NCBI GenBank assembly: GCA_001781205.1
Contig: MFLE01000025.1
Coordinates: 22,914 to 86,913, forward strand
DNA from: Candidatus Kaiserbacteria bacterium RIFCSPHIGHO2_02_FULL_49_34
GTDB lineage: Bacteria > Patescibacteriota > Minisyncoccia > Phycocordibacterales > UBA918
Length of the DNA stretch: 64,000 bases
Reading direction: 5' to 3'
Shown here piece after piece: positions 22,547 through 31,264 of this stretch (position 1 is its first letter; every line of letters starts with the position of its first letter). The position numbers were made by a program, and so were the translations under genes. The notes beneath the pieces were generated by a model. It worked only from the letters and a program-made list of their open reading frames with translations, was not told where the DNA came from and searched no databases.

Positions 22547-23464
22547 TCATTGCATTGTTCGCATGACGCGATCGATGGCTTCGAGTGAAGTGTATTTGGG
22601 AGCACAGCCCATGTCGGCAAGTGTTGTCCGACATGAGTAGTACGCATGTTTTTTTCCTGTGGGACTTTGAGGTTCCTCGTCAGTTATAGCAGTGCGAAGC
22701 CCCCAGGTTTCTTTGAAGTACGTTAGCAAGTCAAACTTTGTGACAGGCCATGCACTTTGCAAGTCGTACGCCGTATTTTCTGGCGGACGCTGAAGGAGAA
22801 AGAACAAGACATGCGAGACCATTTCTGGTGTCACATAGTCGCGTACGATATCATCAGGACTCGTGATAAACACCTCACCCGAACGAACGCACGCTACCAA
22901 CTGTGAAAGCAGAAAGAACGATTCGCTCACATCAACCTGTGCACTAAAGAACGAAAAGAGACGCAGGTCGACAATAGGCAGATTGTCGTGTGCACGATGC
23001 TTCAATTCCGATGCGAGTTTCGCAACTGCATAGAAATCAGAGACATGCACAGCATCGGGGTCGAACGTTGCTTCTGCCGCTTTGAGAAGCGGCTCGCCAC
23101 ATCGTCCGCCATAGATTGCCCCCGTACTGATATTGAAGGCGCGAACACCAGGATATCGCTTGCAATATGCCATCGTAAGCGCATCCATGGATTCCGTCAC
23201 CTCAAATATCGCACGAGGATTGCTCGCGAGCGCCTGAGGACTCCCGATACCTGTCGCATTCACAATCACATCAGCACCCCGCCGAAGCAGCGTGTCAATG
23301 TGATGTATCTGGACTGATTCAGGAACCCCAAGTGCACGGAGCATTTTCTCCGCTTGGTCAACATCCCTCACAAAAAGTGAAAGTTCCGCACGCGGGTCGC
23401 GCGCCAGCCTGACCGCCAGCGAACGACCCACATACCCCGTCGCGCCAAGAATGGCGATTCGCAT
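22547..23464 (-). CDS. NAD(P)-dependent epimerase/dehydratase-family (SDR) protein, possible sugar 4-reductase
   Basis: N-terminal Rossmann MRIAILGATGYVGRSLAVRL. Extended SDR architecture. Confidence 0.75.
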   Translation of the reverse strand: MRIAILGATGYVGRSLAVRLARDPRAELSLFVRDVDQAEKMLRALGVPESVQIHHIDTLLRRGADVIVNATGIGSPQALASNPRAIFEVTESMDALTMAYCKRYPGVRAFNISTGAIYGGRCGEPLLKAAEATFDPDAVHVSDFYAVAKLASELKHRAHDNLPIVDLRLFSFFSAQVDVSESFFLLSQLVACVRSGEVFITSPDDIVRDYVTPEMVSHVLFFLLQRPPENTAYDLQSAWPVTKFDLLTYFKETWGLRTAITDEEPQSPTGKKHAYYSCRTTLADMGCAPKYTSLEAIDRVMRTMQ

Positions 23465-23473
23465 AGGTACCTC

Positions 23474-25255
23474 CTATTCATCCACGGGATGAACAATCAT
23501 GTTGCTCAAATACTCATCCCGATCAAGAAACGGCATCATGTCCTCGAGAGGACGCGAAACCATCTTGCCTTCTGCTGTTTTTTTAGAAGCAGCAGTTGGC
23601 ACAACCGGTTCGTTTTCAGGGCAGATCACTTCGCAAATCACGGGACCATTTTCCGCTAGCACGTCCTGCAAATCTTCTGCAAGGGTCGCGCTGTTCTGCA
23701 GTCGACGATACATGATTCCATATGCATCAGCAATCTTTTGCGTATCGGGAAGCGATAGCCCCGACGTTCCATCAGTACCAACAAGTCGTCCTTCAAAGAA
23801 CTTGGTTTGCGTGGCACGAATGGACAGGTAGCCATTGTTGTTGAGAATGAACAGCTTGATGGGGAGCTTGTGGTGCGCGATGGTTTGGAGATCTTGAATG
23901 TTCATCTGAAATGAACCATCTCCAGTGACTCCGTACGTAGGCCCCCCCTTTGCAAAGCTTGCGCCAATACATGCAGGCAGTGTGAACCCCATTTCAGCTT
24001 GTCCGCCAGAGGTAAGGAAGCGTTGCGCTCCTTTCAGGTTGATTGCCTGTGCCGTCACGTAGAATGCGGAGCCTGCATCTGAGATAACAACCGCATCATC
24101 TTCCATGATAGTACTCAGCGTGTCGATAAAGTGATACATACTGACCACGTCATCATAAACACGATACTCAGGCAAACATACTGGATATTTCTCCTTCCAT
24201 GCCTGACAGGTTGCCAACCACGACTTCGTGGCTGGTTTTTGCGACAAAATGCATTTGGTTAAAAACTCCTTTGCGTCTGCGTGGACAAAATGATCGACGT
24301 GGATGGTACGCTTCTTGTGCTCAACCGGATCGATATCAACCACAGTAATCAATGCTTCACGTGCGAAGAGTGAGTATTCATACCCAATCGCCGTCACGCT
24401 GAGACGACTTCCGATTGAAAGGACTAGGTCCGCATTTTGTACCGCAAGGTTCCCTGCACGACTACCCTTGATACCAATCACACCGACATACATCGGATGA
24501 TCAGTATCGAGCATGCCGACACCGAGATATGGCGCAACGACCGGAATCTTGTACCGTTCAACGAACGCCTTGAGCTGTGGAATCGCGTCTGCAATCCGCA
24601 CACCTTGCCCTGCAATAATCACAGGACGCTTCGCACGCGAGAGCCTGCCTGCCACGGCATGACACTCCCCTTTCGACGGAACACGTCGAGCACCTGCCAC
24701 CTGCACAGTGCATGCAGGTGGCACTGCGGGCATCTGCGCCCCCTGCACATCCATCGGCACATCGATCCATACTGGACCGGGACGTCCGGATGTTGCAAGC
24801 TGCAGTGCTTGTTCGAGATGCTCTGCAACATGCGCAGGATCAGTCACCATCACCGCATACTTCGTGATTGATTGCACGATAGCGATAACATCAGCTTCTT
24901 GCGTGCCAAGTTGACGAAGCGGGACGCCGGTACCACGTGTTGTTTCGGACTGTTTGACTTGTCCAGAAATAAACACAACCGGCACATTATCCTGCCACGC
25001 CGTCAGAAGGCCCGTGATTGCATTCGTCGCACCACAACCGGTGCTTGTAAACGCAGCACTTATGCCTCCCGTGTATTTTGCATACCCGACCGCAGCCATT
25101 GCCGATGCTTGTTCGTGGTGATTGCACACCACGTCCATGTCCGGGTGGACATGGAGCGCATCAGACAGAAACATCATGCCGCCGCCCGACACCATAAAGG
25201 TGTGATGGACGCCGGCACGATACAGCCGATCAACAATATAGTCAGCGACTCGCAT
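23474..25255 (-). CDS. thiamine-diphosphate-dependent acetolactate-synthase-like enzyme (candidate YerE-type sugar-branching enzyme)
   Basis: MRVADYIVDRLYRAGVHHTFMVSGGGMMFLSDAL...TSTGCGATNAITGLLTAWQDNVPVVFISGQ is the ThDP Pyr-domain signature. ~592 aa, ALS/POX family. AAGGAG RBS before MRVADY. Lies in a CDP-dideoxyhexose cluster. Confidence 0.85.
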   Translation of the reverse strand: MRVADYIVDRLYRAGVHHTFMVSGGGMMFLSDALHVHPDMDVVCNHHEQASAMAAVGYAKYTGGISAAFTSTGCGATNAITGLLTAWQDNVPVVFISGQVKQSETTRGTGVPLRQLGTQEADVIAIVQSITKYAVMVTDPAHVAEHLEQALQLATSGRPGPVWIDVPMDVQGAQMPAVPPACTVQVAGARRVPSKGECHAVAGRLSRAKRPVIIAGQGVRIADAIPQLKAFVERYKIPVVAPYLGVGMLDTDHPMYVGVIGIKGSRAGNLAVQNADLVLSIGSRLSVTAIGYEYSLFAREALITVVDIDPVEHKKRTIHVDHFVHADAKEFLTKCILSQKPATKSWLATCQAWKEKYPVCLPEYRVYDDVVSMYHFIDTLSTIMEDDAVVISDAGSAFYVTAQAINLKGAQRFLTSGGQAEMGFTLPACIGASFAKGGPTYGVTGDGSFQMNIQDLQTIAHHKLPIKLFILNNNGYLSIRATQTKFFEGRLVGTDGTSGLSLPDTQKIADAYGIMYRRLQNSATLAEDLQDVLAENGPVICEVICPENEPVVPTAASKKTAEGKMVSRPLEDMMPFLDRDEYLSNMIVHPVDE

Positions 25256-25260
25256 AGTAA

Positions 25261-29759: not shown

Positions 29760-29818
29760 GCATTGCAAAATAATTGATGTTAGTCTCTAGGTATCTGATC
29801 TTTTAGAGGAGCAATCCC

Positions 29819-30367
29819 ATGCACATTACAACGCTAGATATCCCCGGACTTTTTCTGATTACTCCAACTCCTCGTGCCGATGTGCGTGGCGTGTTTCAGA
29901 AAACGTTTGACGCGGCACTGTTTGCAACACACGGCATGAACACCGACCTTCACGAGGTGTTTGAGACAGAATCGCACAAGGAAGTAATACGTGGTATGCA
30001 CTTCCAAATGCCCCCGCATGCTTGCGCAAAATACGTATCCGTCAAGCACGGCAGTATTCTTGATGTTGTGCTTGATATACGAATGAATTCTCCAACATTT
30101 GGGAAACATCTGTCGATACAGCTTTCTGCAGAGAATCAATCAACACTGTACATTCCCGAAGGGTTTGCGCATGGATTCAAAGCACTCACCGAACTCGCAC
30201 ATACGTCATATCTGCAAACAGCAGGTTTCAATGCAGCATGTGATGCGGGCATACATTTTGATTCATTCGGCATGGATTGGGGTGTTGATAATCCCATCAT
30301 GTCCGAACGCGACAAAGCACTCCCCGCATTCACCTCGTTTATCTCACCTTTTTCCCATCAGGAGTAA
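29819..30367 (+). CDS. dTDP/CDP-4-dehydro-6-deoxyhexose 3,5-epimerase family (RmlC-like cupin)
   Basis: LDIPGLFLITPTPRADVRGVF...GMHFQMPPHA..KYVSVKHGSILDVVLDIR.NSPTFG matches the RmlC fold motifs. AGAGGAG RBS. Confidence 0.8.
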   Translation: MHITTLDIPGLFLITPTPRADVRGVFQKTFDAALFATHGMNTDLHEVFETESHKEVIRGMHFQMPPHACAKYVSVKHGSILDVVLDIRMNSPTFGKHLSIQLSAENQSTLYIPEGFAHGFKALTELAHTSYLQTAGFNAACDAGIHFDSFGMDWGVDNPIMSERDKALPAFTSFISPFSHQE

Positions 30368-30370
30368 GTC

Positions 30371-31264
30371 ATGAAAATACTCGTAACTGGCGCAAGTGGT
30401 TTCGTGGGAGGCAATCTCGCAGAGCGACGCCTCACTCATGGAGATGATGTGGTGGTTATCACACGATCTGGAACGGACGAAGCTCTTCTTCCGCAAGGAG
30501 TGCGCATCTTCCAACATGATGGCAATCATGAACAACTTTCAGAGTTTATTCTGAAAGAATGCTTCGACGGCATCGTGCATTGTGCAACGCACTTTTGCGG
30601 GACACACACTGCGAACGACATCGACAAACTTGTCGACAGCAACATTCGTTTCGGCATGCATCTCTTTGAAGCTGCAACTAAACACGATGTACCATGGATG
30701 ATCAACACAAGCACCTATACGCAACACTACGAGAACCGTGACTATTCACCCGCAAACCTGTACTCGGCAACCAAGCAAGCATTCGAGGATATTGTGCAAT
30801 ACTATGCCGAGACAACCGCAACCACAATTGCAACCGTAACCTTATTTGACACAATCGGCGAGGGCGACAGAAGAAATAAGATTTTTCGCGCACTACTTAA
30901 TGCTGCAAAGACGGGGACCTGTCTTGAGTTGTCGCCGGGCGAACAATTGCTTGATATCAGCCCGATACAAAATGTGCTCGATGGGTACGATCGCATGGTG
31001 ACGCTGCTCACTCAAAGCAATCACACTATGTTCAACGGAAAGGTATTCACACTTCCTTCGAACGAACGTATGACGCTCCGTTCTTTTGTTGCACTTTTTG
31101 AAAGTGTACTCGGCAGAAAACTCCCCGTAACCTTTGGTACTCGTCCCTATCGTGAGCGAGAAATGATGTTGCCATGGTCGCACGGAGAACCAGTACCCGG
31201 CTGGAAACCACACATCAGTCTTGCCGAGAGCATCCAAGACATCATGAAACATGAACTCGGGTAA
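30371..31264 (+). CDS. NAD-dependent epimerase/dehydratase-family (SDR) sugar reductase/epimerase
   Basis: MKILVTGASGFVGGNLAERRL Rossmann N-terminus. Sits directly downstream of the epimerase gene. Confidence 0.78.
   Translation: MKILVTGASGFVGGNLAERRLTHGDDVVVITRSGTDEALLPQGVRIFQHDGNHEQLSEFILKECFDGIVHCATHFCGTHTANDIDKLVDSNIRFGMHLFEAATKHDVPWMINTSTYTQHYENRDYSPANLYSATKQAFEDIVQYYAETTATTIATVTLFDTIGEGDRRNKIFRALLNAAKTGTCLELSPGEQLLDISPIQNVLDGYDRMVTLLTQSNHTMFNGKVFTLPSNERMTLRSFVALFESVLGRKLPVTFGTRPYREREMMLPWSHGEPVPGWKPHISLAESIQDIMKHELG

Follow-up and report, generated by a model that had tools for sequence, protein, structure and literature searches.

A predicted cluster-free relative of the E1 3-dehydratase and an aminotransferase-linked, YerE-like carboligase in a candidate branched-sugar locus of a Kaiserbacteria genome

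Introduction

Characterized sugar 3-dehydratases comprise E1, which carries an iron-sulfur cluster and works with the reductase E3, SpnQ, which carries a cluster and uses general reductases, and ColD, which has no cluster (PMC8987622); in ColD the ene intermediate is hydrolyzed and pyridoxamine 5'-phosphate (PMP) is regenerated by glutamate (PMC8987622, PMC10440746). The formation of acyl-branched sugars has been cast in a "unifying scheme", in which a donor-forming enzyme is encoded next to a thiamine diphosphate (ThDP)-dependent enzyme and a reductase, and in the erwiniose arrangement it is an aldolase that produces the donor, 4-hydroxy-2-oxopentanoate (PMC9306805). JanthE, a YerE-like, ketone-accepting carboligase of which the physiological substrates are unknown (PMC12188165, PMC12247030), takes pyruvate among other donors and prefers C4-C5 2-oxo acids in vitro (PMC12247030). 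Here we compare with these systems a locus from Candidatus Kaiserbacteria bacterium RIFCSPHIGHO2_02_FULL_49_34, located in a 64,000-nt stretch of contig MFLE01000025.1 (hereafter the window, meaning the whole stretch of DNA analyzed), in which CDP-glucose genes are grouped with genes for an E1-like dehydratase, an aminotransferase and a YerE-like ThDP enzyme.

The genes concerned are rfbG, rfbF, the aminotransferase gene (AT1), the ThDP gene and SDR_A, which encodes a short-chain dehydrogenase/reductase (SDR), together with the E1-like gene, an RmlC-like epimerase gene and a second SDR gene, SDR_B (Table 1). An earlier note on this DNA had read them as a yersiniose-like pathway, and the nine genes that it claimed are real and lie where it had placed them. 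We put at roughly 55% the probability of the whole pathway proposed below, which combines a ColD-type dehydratase and an AT1-fed donor with two branches, A and B.

Results

Related loci were collected by a genome-collection scan with a single protein, which gave 4 loci, and by a metagenome scan with an alignment, which gave 80; those fetched and scanned are numbered L001-L097, and ~90 of them are ThDP-related. Broken open reading frames (ORFs) in L003 were considered as pseudogenes and rejected as such, the breaks being scaffold gaps.

The E1-like protein carries the motif SFYGSHIINGAGGG, in which a His occupies the position of the pyridoxal 5'-phosphate (PLP) lysine and aligns with H220 of E1. 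The lysine-to-histidine change that the earlier note had seen in this motif is upheld. The His stands at H220 not only in the window protein but throughout its 120 closest homologues, which share 62-100% identity and come mostly from Patescibacteria, and realignment leaves the His of the E1-like protein in place and does not bring the PLP Lys back. Of the [2Fe-2S] ligands of E1, C251, C253 and C261 are replaced (by S, F and A in a pairwise HMMER alignment) and the equivalent of C193 is the sole cluster cysteine kept, in a protein with two Cys in its whole length. The same three ligands are absent from 120/120 of the closest homologues, which without exception carry SFYGSH(I/V)IN(G/A)AGG, and because the changes are common to this entire set they do not, as judged from the alignment, represent decay. 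Relative to E1, the protein is shorter by 35-50 residues at its N-terminus and by an 8-residue loop, with Ile in place of H221 and GGG in place of EGG. Comparison with solved structures gives 247 bits, 35% identity and a Foldseek template modeling (TM) score of 0.85 for Yersinia E1 (3bcx), and 192 bits, 31% identity and a TM score of 0.80 for ColD, while the score against the RfbH family model (NCBIfam NF011936) is 350.3 bits, under the cutoff of 423. The sequence thus describes a protein that is not a canonical E1 and in which the [2Fe-2S] site is predicted to be lost. The fold of its AlphaFold model is confident, with a predicted local distance difference test (pLDDT) value of 83.5.

This pattern extends through the wider family. 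In a library of relatives clustered at 50% identity, the His is present in 127 of the 128 analyzable members, and the former cluster loop is without Cys in 78 of 128 representative clusters and holds at least 3 Cys in 48. Most of the 78 Cys-free clusters show the loop type of the window protein, not that of ColD, and among the best 23 representatives of the library the 22 that could be analyzed are all cysteine-free. A second cluster-free group, made up of the proteins of L031, L033 and L046 at ~45% identity, has lost C193 too. Canonical E1, recognized by FYP[AP]HH and WGRDCxC...DNTC, is present in related loci from other phyla. We observed in passing that NCBI records name the cluster-free E1-like protein a "NarL family transcriptional regulator" (P0121, P0161, P0165 and P0211), a misannotation that has spread across homologues.

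The earlier note had portrayed the locus as one in which an E1 lacks the E3 that it needs. That no E3 lies in the window proves correct, both from Pfam domain lists, in which the genes called across the 64 kb show no Fer2, FAD_binding_6 or NAD_binding_1 (a search confined to this window of the genome), and from tblastn with an AscD-like probe, which found no match in the window or beside any cluster-free E1 in the fetched loci. The same probe matched a Fer2/FAD/NAD ORF in L030 at 51% identity, which validates it as a search tool. What has to be given up is the canonical E1, as the enzyme is without cluster ligands. The only full E3 (Fer2, FAD_binding_6 and NAD_binding_1) in the loci scanned is that of L030 (4595-5593), where its neighbor is a canonical E1; in L021 a canonical E1 is likewise accompanied by an FNR-like ORF, which is smaller and has no Fer2 domain, and weak matches to the probe, at 22% identity, occur in L074 and L088. 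Most canonical-E1 loci outside the enterobacteria are, among the loci scanned, likewise without a clustered E3. An E1-like enzyme without [2Fe-2S] ligands offers nothing for E3 to reduce, and the missing E3 is therefore probably explained by the lost iron-sulfur site of its partner.

The gene of the cluster-free enzyme is divergent from rfbG-rfbF in the window, L007 and L017, and L014 has this gene set too, with an insert. The slot in the RfbF-RfbG-E1-AT1-ThDP arrangement that canonical E1 holds in L012, L013, L030 and L032 is filled in L031 and L033 by the cluster-free enzyme, and this shared slot argues that the cluster-free enzyme would do the job of canonical E1 on the same CDP sugar. In natural fusions, the partner of the cluster-free E1-like domain is a 4,6-dehydratase-like SDR, RmlC, or RmlC together with an RmlD-like reductase (P0361, P0363, P0364, P0428, P0432 and P0369, the last interrupted by an intein), and a Fer2/FNR module was found in 0/8 of the sugar-enzyme fusions examined (6 cluster-free, 2 canonical). 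From motif and context taken together we infer that the E1-like enzyme likely uses ColD-type, amino-donor-driven chemistry on a CDP sugar, and such chemistry would explain the absence of E3.

The ThDP enzyme finds its best match in the PDB in JanthE (8rph, 414 bits), followed by PpYerE (5ahk, 258 bits) and plant acetohydroxyacid synthase (AHAS, ~250 bits), and the alignment with 8rph covers residues 2-584, including a C-terminal tail that is missing from AHAS. It carries the HEQ glutamate (HHEQ) and the GDG-X24-NNN motif (GDGSF...NNNGY), both invariant in alignment A1. In a quick neighbor-joining tree of 85 sequences, built without support values, it falls within the clade of JanthE and PpYerE with AHAS as the outgroup, and it scores under every NCBIfam AHAS cutoff (390.5 bits against 538 for TIGR00118, with the other AHAS models far below). 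PpYerE was used as the solved homologue in the YerE comparison, not the YpYerE or ErwE sequences. In none of the related loci examined does the ThDP gene have an ilvN or ilvC neighbor, its neighbors being sugar genes, and it clusters with genes for CDP-4-keto-3,6-dideoxyhexose and a ketoreductase in the window, L007, L008, L011-L013, L020, L022, L030-L033 and others. From these sequence comparisons the enzyme is YerE-like and distinct from acetolactate synthase, and ketone carboligation is its predicted reaction. The earlier note had given ~592 residues for it and had called it an ALS-family enzyme analogous to YerE; its presence and the YerE analogy stand, the length comes to 593 residues, and the scores of 414 bits for JanthE and ~250 bits for AHAS set it apart from acetolactate synthase. 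A grouping with IlvB together with an ilvN/ilvC neighborhood, which that note had named as the outcome that would overturn its view, is opposed by both the tree and the neighbors of the loci. A biosynthetic acetolactate synthase (IlvB, IlvG or IlvI) was accordingly rejected as its identity, with scores below all cutoffs and no ilv gene in its surroundings.

Across phyla, no gene is linked to the ThDP gene more tightly than AT1. In ~22 loci, which come from several phyla, an orthologue with 51-93% identity is the immediate upstream neighbor of the ThDP gene, at 1.2 kb (the window, L007, L008, L011-L015, L018, L020, L022-L024, L027, L030-L033, L041, L046, L063 and L082), and the view that the aminotransferase is atypical for the pathway, put forward in the earlier note, is not borne out by this conservation. 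In distant loci AT1 matches or surpasses the ThDP enzyme in conservation, with identity at 58-64% for AT1, 57-58% for the ThDP enzyme and 31-46% for RfbG, and the E1 type is variable. Among solved structures AT1 is closest to 1dju (287 bits), an aromatic aminotransferase from P. horikoshii, and aminotransferases of Phormidium and Thermus are also among the best matches. Its motifs SKAFAMTGWR, NPTG, DEIY and GYIRM (PLP Lys, Asn/Asp/Tyr and C-terminal Arg) align with those of solved aminotransferases and are kept in 109-120 of its 120 homologues, NPTG and DEIY in 120/120 and the SK..G.R pattern in 109/120. The Asn of PGANIA in AT1 is shared with the Pyrococcus aromatic aminotransferase, and Phormidium aspartate aminotransferase (AspAT) has Lys there. 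We take this position to be the distal-carboxylate site of Thermus AspAT, and the Asn is then a weak hint that the substrate of AT1 is neutral.

The slot held by AT1 is occupied by other enzymes in sister loci. In L009 and L089 its place is taken by an acetaldehyde dehydrogenase and an aldolase of the DmpG/HMGL type, and the same pair is found nearby in L026, L028 and L045. In L021 a Transketolase_N fragment and a ketopantoate hydroxymethyltransferase of the PanB-like kind (8341-9968) immediately precede a YerE-like gene, which suggests the PanB-like enzyme as a third way to supply a 2-oxo-acid donor. Because AT1, the aldolase pair and the PanB-like enzyme share the slot and all form 2-oxo acids, AT1 most likely supplies the 2-oxo-acid donor from an amino acid. 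The branch may then be other than the C2 unit of yersiniose, being derived from the 2-oxo acid of an amino acid instead of from pyruvate. Of the yersiniose-like pathway proposed in the earlier note, a candidate CDP-glucose-derived 4-C-branched deoxysugar with a YerE-like carboligase and a ketoreductase is retained; yersiniose itself, in view of the donor supply by AT1, is not established. In every AT1-type locus with enough flanking sequence an SDR stands beside the ThDP gene, which argues against AT1 having replaced ketoreduction.

In the window this SDR is SDR_A, a divergent protein that has no PDB match better than an E-value of 7e-4 and carries a Rossmann motif, GATGYVG, and a YxxxK motif, YAVAK. 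Homologues lie 3' of the ThDP gene in L007, L008 and L013 (36-71% identity) and, more weakly, in L032 and L033 (27-34%), and in L017 one with 39% identity follows a split transketolase, with rfbG, rfbF and a cluster-free E1 alongside. We propose from motifs and position that SDR_A is the side-chain ketoreductase, the role of YerF, a role that fits because SDR_A accompanies a branching enzyme of either type, ThDP or transketolase. The region of L017 (3713-9197, from the Candidate Phyla Radiation, CPR), in which the split transketolase consists of Transketolase_N and Transket_pyr, resembles in its own right a transketolase-type branching cassette without an aminotransferase.

The RmlC-like enzyme has as its best PDB match 5buv, a "putative epimerase". 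L007 and L014 have neither its gene nor SDR_B, and the two genes therefore appear accessory; the SDRs and the epimerase-like cupin that the earlier note had joined to the pathway are all clustered here, and of these the RmlC-like gene and SDR_B lie outside the conserved branching cassette. In the ascarylose route AscE and AscF follow the 3-dehydratase. Since 3-dehydratase, RmlC-like enzyme and SDR_B form a set both in the fusions and in the AscE/AscF route, we propose by analogy that the RmlC-like enzyme and SDR_B, the latter as a C-4 ketoreductase, probably make a second sugar, an ascarylose-type 3,6-dideoxy-L-hexose.

The coordinates of these genes and of the features around them are collected in Table 1. 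The minus-strand operon consists of five genes in the order rfbG-rfbF-AT1-ThDP-SDR_A, with rfbG first, which overlap or are separated by gaps of 3-9 nt (the rfbG/rfbF overlap is 4 nt). Divergent from it, the plus strand carries the DegT-family E1-like gene, the RmlC-like epimerase gene, SDR_B and a Wzx flippase gene, followed by a run of glycosyltransferase genes that includes GT2, GT-D, GT10, GT4 and Bac_transf members. The open frame of the ThDP gene extends to 25333, and homologues and gene callers place its start at 25255. The locus was also found on several groundwater metagenome contigs, and the 211 kb contig ERZ4903055 k141_867211 carries it.

Table 1. Position and assignment of the genes and candidate signals of the locus, in window coordinates
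Feature	Position	Strand	Basis
RfbG, CDP-glucose 4,6-dehydratase	27213..28343	-	NCBIfam TIGR02622 equivalog, 439.5 bits vs cutoff 278
RfbF, glucose-1-phosphate cytidylyltransferase	26440..27216	-	NCBIfam TIGR02623 equivalog, 372 bits vs cutoff 300
AT1, class I/II (AspAT-like) PLP aminotransferase, 391 aa	25261..26436	-	Pfam Aminotran_1_2, 2.3e-67
YerE/JanthE-like ThDP-dependent carboligase (predicted), 593 aa	23474..25255	-	TPP_enzyme_N, M and C domains
SDR_A, atypical extended SDR, 305 aa	22547..23464	-	Pfam Epimerase, 4e-14
E1-like PMP/PLP sugar 3-dehydratase (predicted), DegT family, 402 aa	28496..29704	+	Pfam DegT, 5.6e-82
RmlC-like epimerase for 4-keto sugars (predicted)	29819..30367	+	Pfam dTDP_sugar_isom, 4.2e-51
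SDR_B	30371..31264	+	Pfam Epimerase, 6.4e-27; RmlD_sub_bind
Wzx-type flippase, first gene of the glycosyltransferase block	31356..32651	+	Pfam Polysacc_synt
Terminator-like hairpin followed by a T-run, 11 nt past the SDR_A stop	22519..22536	-	Consensus match only
Divergent rfbG/E1-like intergenic region, 152 bp	28344..28495	.	One weak promoter-like match per strand
Terminator-like hairpin 3' of the E1-like gene	29729..29748	+	Consensus match only
Terminator-like hairpin 3' of SDR_B	31277-31296		Consensus match

The window also holds genes for GDP-fucose, for fucosyltransferases and for an initiating transferase (Bac_transf), and the region therefore belongs to a large, Wzx-dependent locus for a surface glycan in a CPR (Patescibacteria) host. 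At 13465-19291, 20539-21000 and 36317-37423 lie the genes of the GDP-fucose route, namely gmd, manC and an fcl-like gene, along with a NUDIX gene and the genes for GT10 and GT11 fucosyltransferases. Gene callers conflict at 14618-15619, where a 307-aa minus-strand ORF without a Pfam match competes with the 314-aa plus-strand fcl-like gene. Among the glycosyltransferase genes lies a Zeta_toxin/AAA_33 kinase-like gene (40065-40778, minus strand) that could encode a sugar-nucleotide kinase or be part of a toxin module. A perfect hairpin with a 16-bp stem and a T-rich tail (22466-22500) separates the end of the sugar operon from an unannotated ORF of 147 aa. The G+C content is ~53% in the nucleotide-sugar genes (24000-30000) versus 43-46% in the flippase/glycosyltransferase block (30000-38000), and the two blocks may have different histories.

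Discussion

In the pathway that we favor, RfbF and RfbG would form CDP-4-keto-6-deoxy-D-glucose, from which the E1-like enzyme would remove the 3-hydroxyl with a catalytic His and, like ColD, without an iron-sulfur cluster. The PMP Schiff base at C-4 would undergo His-assisted elimination of the 3-OH to give a 3,4-ene intermediate, hydrolysis of which would yield CDP-4-keto-3,6-dideoxyglucose, ammonia and PLP, with an amino donor, probably glutamate, restoring PMP. In branch A, AT1 would turn an amino acid into a 2-oxo acid, the ThDP enzyme would decarboxylate this acid and add the resulting acyl-anion equivalent to the C-4 ketone, and SDR_A would reduce the side-chain ketone to arrive at a CDP-3,6-dideoxy-4-C-(1-hydroxyalkyl)hexose. 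In branch B, the RmlC-like epimerase and SDR_B would convert the same 4-keto intermediate into an ascarylose-type 3,6-dideoxy-L-hexose.

Several observations weigh against this pathway. The subfamily-specific loops of the AlphaFold model of the E1-like protein, residues 181-187 and 208-221, have a pLDDT <50 and are unreliable, and the exclusion of E3 holds for the 64 kb window and the fetched loci, not for the whole genome. AT1 is also found beside canonical E1, in L030 together with E3, so its role cannot depend on the E1 type. Those features of AT1 that bind a 2-oxo acid serve the glutamate/2-oxoglutarate half-reaction as well and are compatible with a sugar ketone as second substrate, and AT1 might convert alanine to pyruvate, which would lead to yersiniose itself. 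Database records list no characterized member, and no cultured source of a known glycan, for the cluster-free E1-like clade, the AT1 family or the ThDP subclade.

Plain yersiniose would require pyruvate as the donor, an AT1 that either replenishes pyruvate (as an aminotransferase for alanine or of general specificity) or has no part in the pathway, and a reductase encoded elsewhere in the genome. The gene set does match ddhA/ddhB/ddhC with yerE/yerF, the characterized relative JanthE accepts pyruvate among its donors (PMC12247030), and with E3 missing within 10 kb in most canonical-E1 loci too its absence from a locus is common; yet the E1-like protein has no cluster ligands to take up electrons, the inheritance of AT1 along with the ThDP gene in different phyla, at 58-64% identity in distant loci, is hard to square with a need for nothing but an abundant central metabolite, and sister loci fill the AT1 slot with enzymes that make unusual 2-oxo acids, so that we regard this account as unlikely. 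Slightly less likely again is that AT1 acts after branching and aminates the side-chain ketone to give a 4-C-(1-aminoalkyl) branched sugar. Some class I/II aminotransferases do take ketones without an alpha-carboxylate, histidinol-phosphate aminotransferase for example. The sugar aminotransferases are normally of the DegT family, however, AT1 precedes the ThDP gene, in the slot that donor-forming enzymes hold in sister loci, and the SDR beside the ThDP gene in all adequately flanked AT1-type loci means that the lone new ketone is probably reduced, even though transaminases have been named among the modifiers of acetyl branches in secondary metabolites (PMC9306805).

Other doubts concern the assignment of single enzymes. 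The change of EGG to GGG, the replacement of the second His (H221) by Ile, a score under the RfbH cutoff and the presence of gmd and manC 10-15 kb away in the window would all agree with an E1-like protein that is not a 3-dehydratase, whether it performs other PMP chemistry, is inactive or acts on another substrate such as GDP-4-keto-6-deoxymannose of the colitose route. Against this, its motif is invariant in 120/120 homologues, which indicates strong purifying selection, its gene adjoins rfbG/rfbF in L007, L017, L031 and L033 (in L014 with an insert) and replaces canonical E1 in its slot, its domain is fused to RmlC and a reductase, enzymes that act after 3-deoxygenation, and E1 is closer to it than ColD in sequence and predicted fold; we hold the idea to be improbable. 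The colitose (GDP) reading of the gene was likewise judged unlikely, the conserved partner being rfbG-rfbF and the slot taken over being that of canonical E1. We give very little weight to an Ehrlich-type or acetohydroxyacid route in which AT1, the ThDP enzyme and SDR_A serve a non-sugar substituent or amino-acid metabolism. The order of aminotransferase, ThDP decarboxylase and reductase matches Ehrlich logic (amino acid to 2-oxo acid to aldehyde to alcohol) and JGI records annotate the ThDP protein as acetolactate synthase, but this protein stays under all AHAS cutoffs with ilvN/ilvC beside it in no locus, it groups with the ketone-accepting JanthE and PpYerE, and its gene shares an operon with rfbG and rfbF and is linked to E1 in most adequately flanked loci.

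Returning to the favored pathway, its two unusual enzymes could be coupled in a closed glutamate/2-oxoglutarate shuttle by which one amino acid pays for both deoxygenation and branch, an idea that we consider doubtful and offer as tentative. The dehydratase would use glutamate and free 2-oxoglutarate and ammonia, AT1 would spend the 2-oxoglutarate in deaminating an amino acid X, and the ThDP enzyme would graft the 2-oxo-acid skeleton of X onto C-4, with the amino group replacing the NADH/E3/iron-sulfur chain as the formal source of reductant for deoxygenation at C-3. If true, such a shuttle, free of redox proteins, would suit minimal genomes, and the enzyme would stand for a fourth mechanistic class of 3-dehydratase that is derived from E1 and acts like ColD on CDP sugars.

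The cluster-free clade, large, near E1 in sequence and context and devoid of the cluster, is a possible fourth 3-dehydratase class; it would link the mechanisms of E1 and ColD and would allow testing whether the cluster was gained or lost. An aminotransferase-fed cassette would extend the unifying scheme to amino-acid-derived donors, make new branched sugars predictable from sequence and add enzymes for the biocatalytic preparation of chiral tertiary alcohols. CPR bacteria, known for their minimal metabolism, appear here to spend a sizeable gene set on an elaborate surface sugar. Krug et al. (2024, cited in PMC12247030) reportedly found >200 YerE-like clusters in silico, and an aminotransferase-type cluster may already be listed in their survey.

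Compared with known systems, the pathway belongs to the YerE-type branched-sugar family and fits the published unifying scheme, from which it departs in having an aminotransferase as the donor-forming enzyme and a cluster-free E1 relative as the 3-dehydratase. With the yersiniose A pathway of Yersinia pseudotuberculosis (DdhA/B/C/D, YerE and YerF) it shares a CDP-glucose synthase, a 4,6-dehydratase, a His-type 3-dehydratase, a ThDP carboligase predicted to act on a C-4 ketone, a ketoreductase and a surface glycan as the destined product; it differs in the absence of E3 from the window and of [2Fe-2S] ligands from the dehydratase, in the coupling of an aminotransferase to the ThDP gene, in the only distant relationship of the ThDP enzyme to PpYerE (258 bits versus 414 for JanthE) and in having a CPR host without lipopolysaccharide. 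JanthE (Janthinobacterium sp. HH01, PDB 8rph), the best solved relative of the ThDP enzyme, shares the C-terminal extension, accepts ketones and takes C3-C6 2-oxo acids, but has CDG where the window enzyme has GDG. The erwiniose, caryophyllose and gastriose clusters (ErwE/F/I/J, MMAR_2331/2332 and MyGE) likewise place a donor-forming enzyme, a YerE-like enzyme and a reductase by CDP-4-keto-3,6-dideoxy genes, and the layout of L009 is the erwiniose layout; the window has a class I aminotransferase where these have a pyruvate aldolase, and an amino-acid-derived donor would follow.

For the dehydratase, E1 with E3 (AscC/AscD, DdhC/DdhD) and SpnQ are alike in that E1 is the closest solved homologue and has the same partners, rfbF and rfbG, and unlike in that the window protein is without 3/4 of the cluster cysteines, the N-terminal 35-50 residues and the 8-residue loop and scores below the RfbH cutoff. 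ColD and the Campylobacter jejuni heptose C3-dehydratases, from which the proposed glutamate/PMP regeneration chemistry is taken, share the His-type DegT fold and have neither an iron-sulfur cluster nor a reductase partner; the window protein is nevertheless nearer to E1, has a WGR...RF loop versus HGW in ColD, H-I versus H-H and GGG versus EGG, and stands in a CDP-glucose context. It therefore has neither the cluster motif nor the family score of an E1, and neither the relatedness nor the GDP-mannose context of a ColD. The ascarylose branch (AscE 5-epimerase and AscF 4-reductase), finally, compares with the RmlC-like epimerase and SDR encoded directly downstream of the 3-dehydratase, with the difference that the best solved relative of the window epimerase is 5buv, as yet named only a "putative epimerase".

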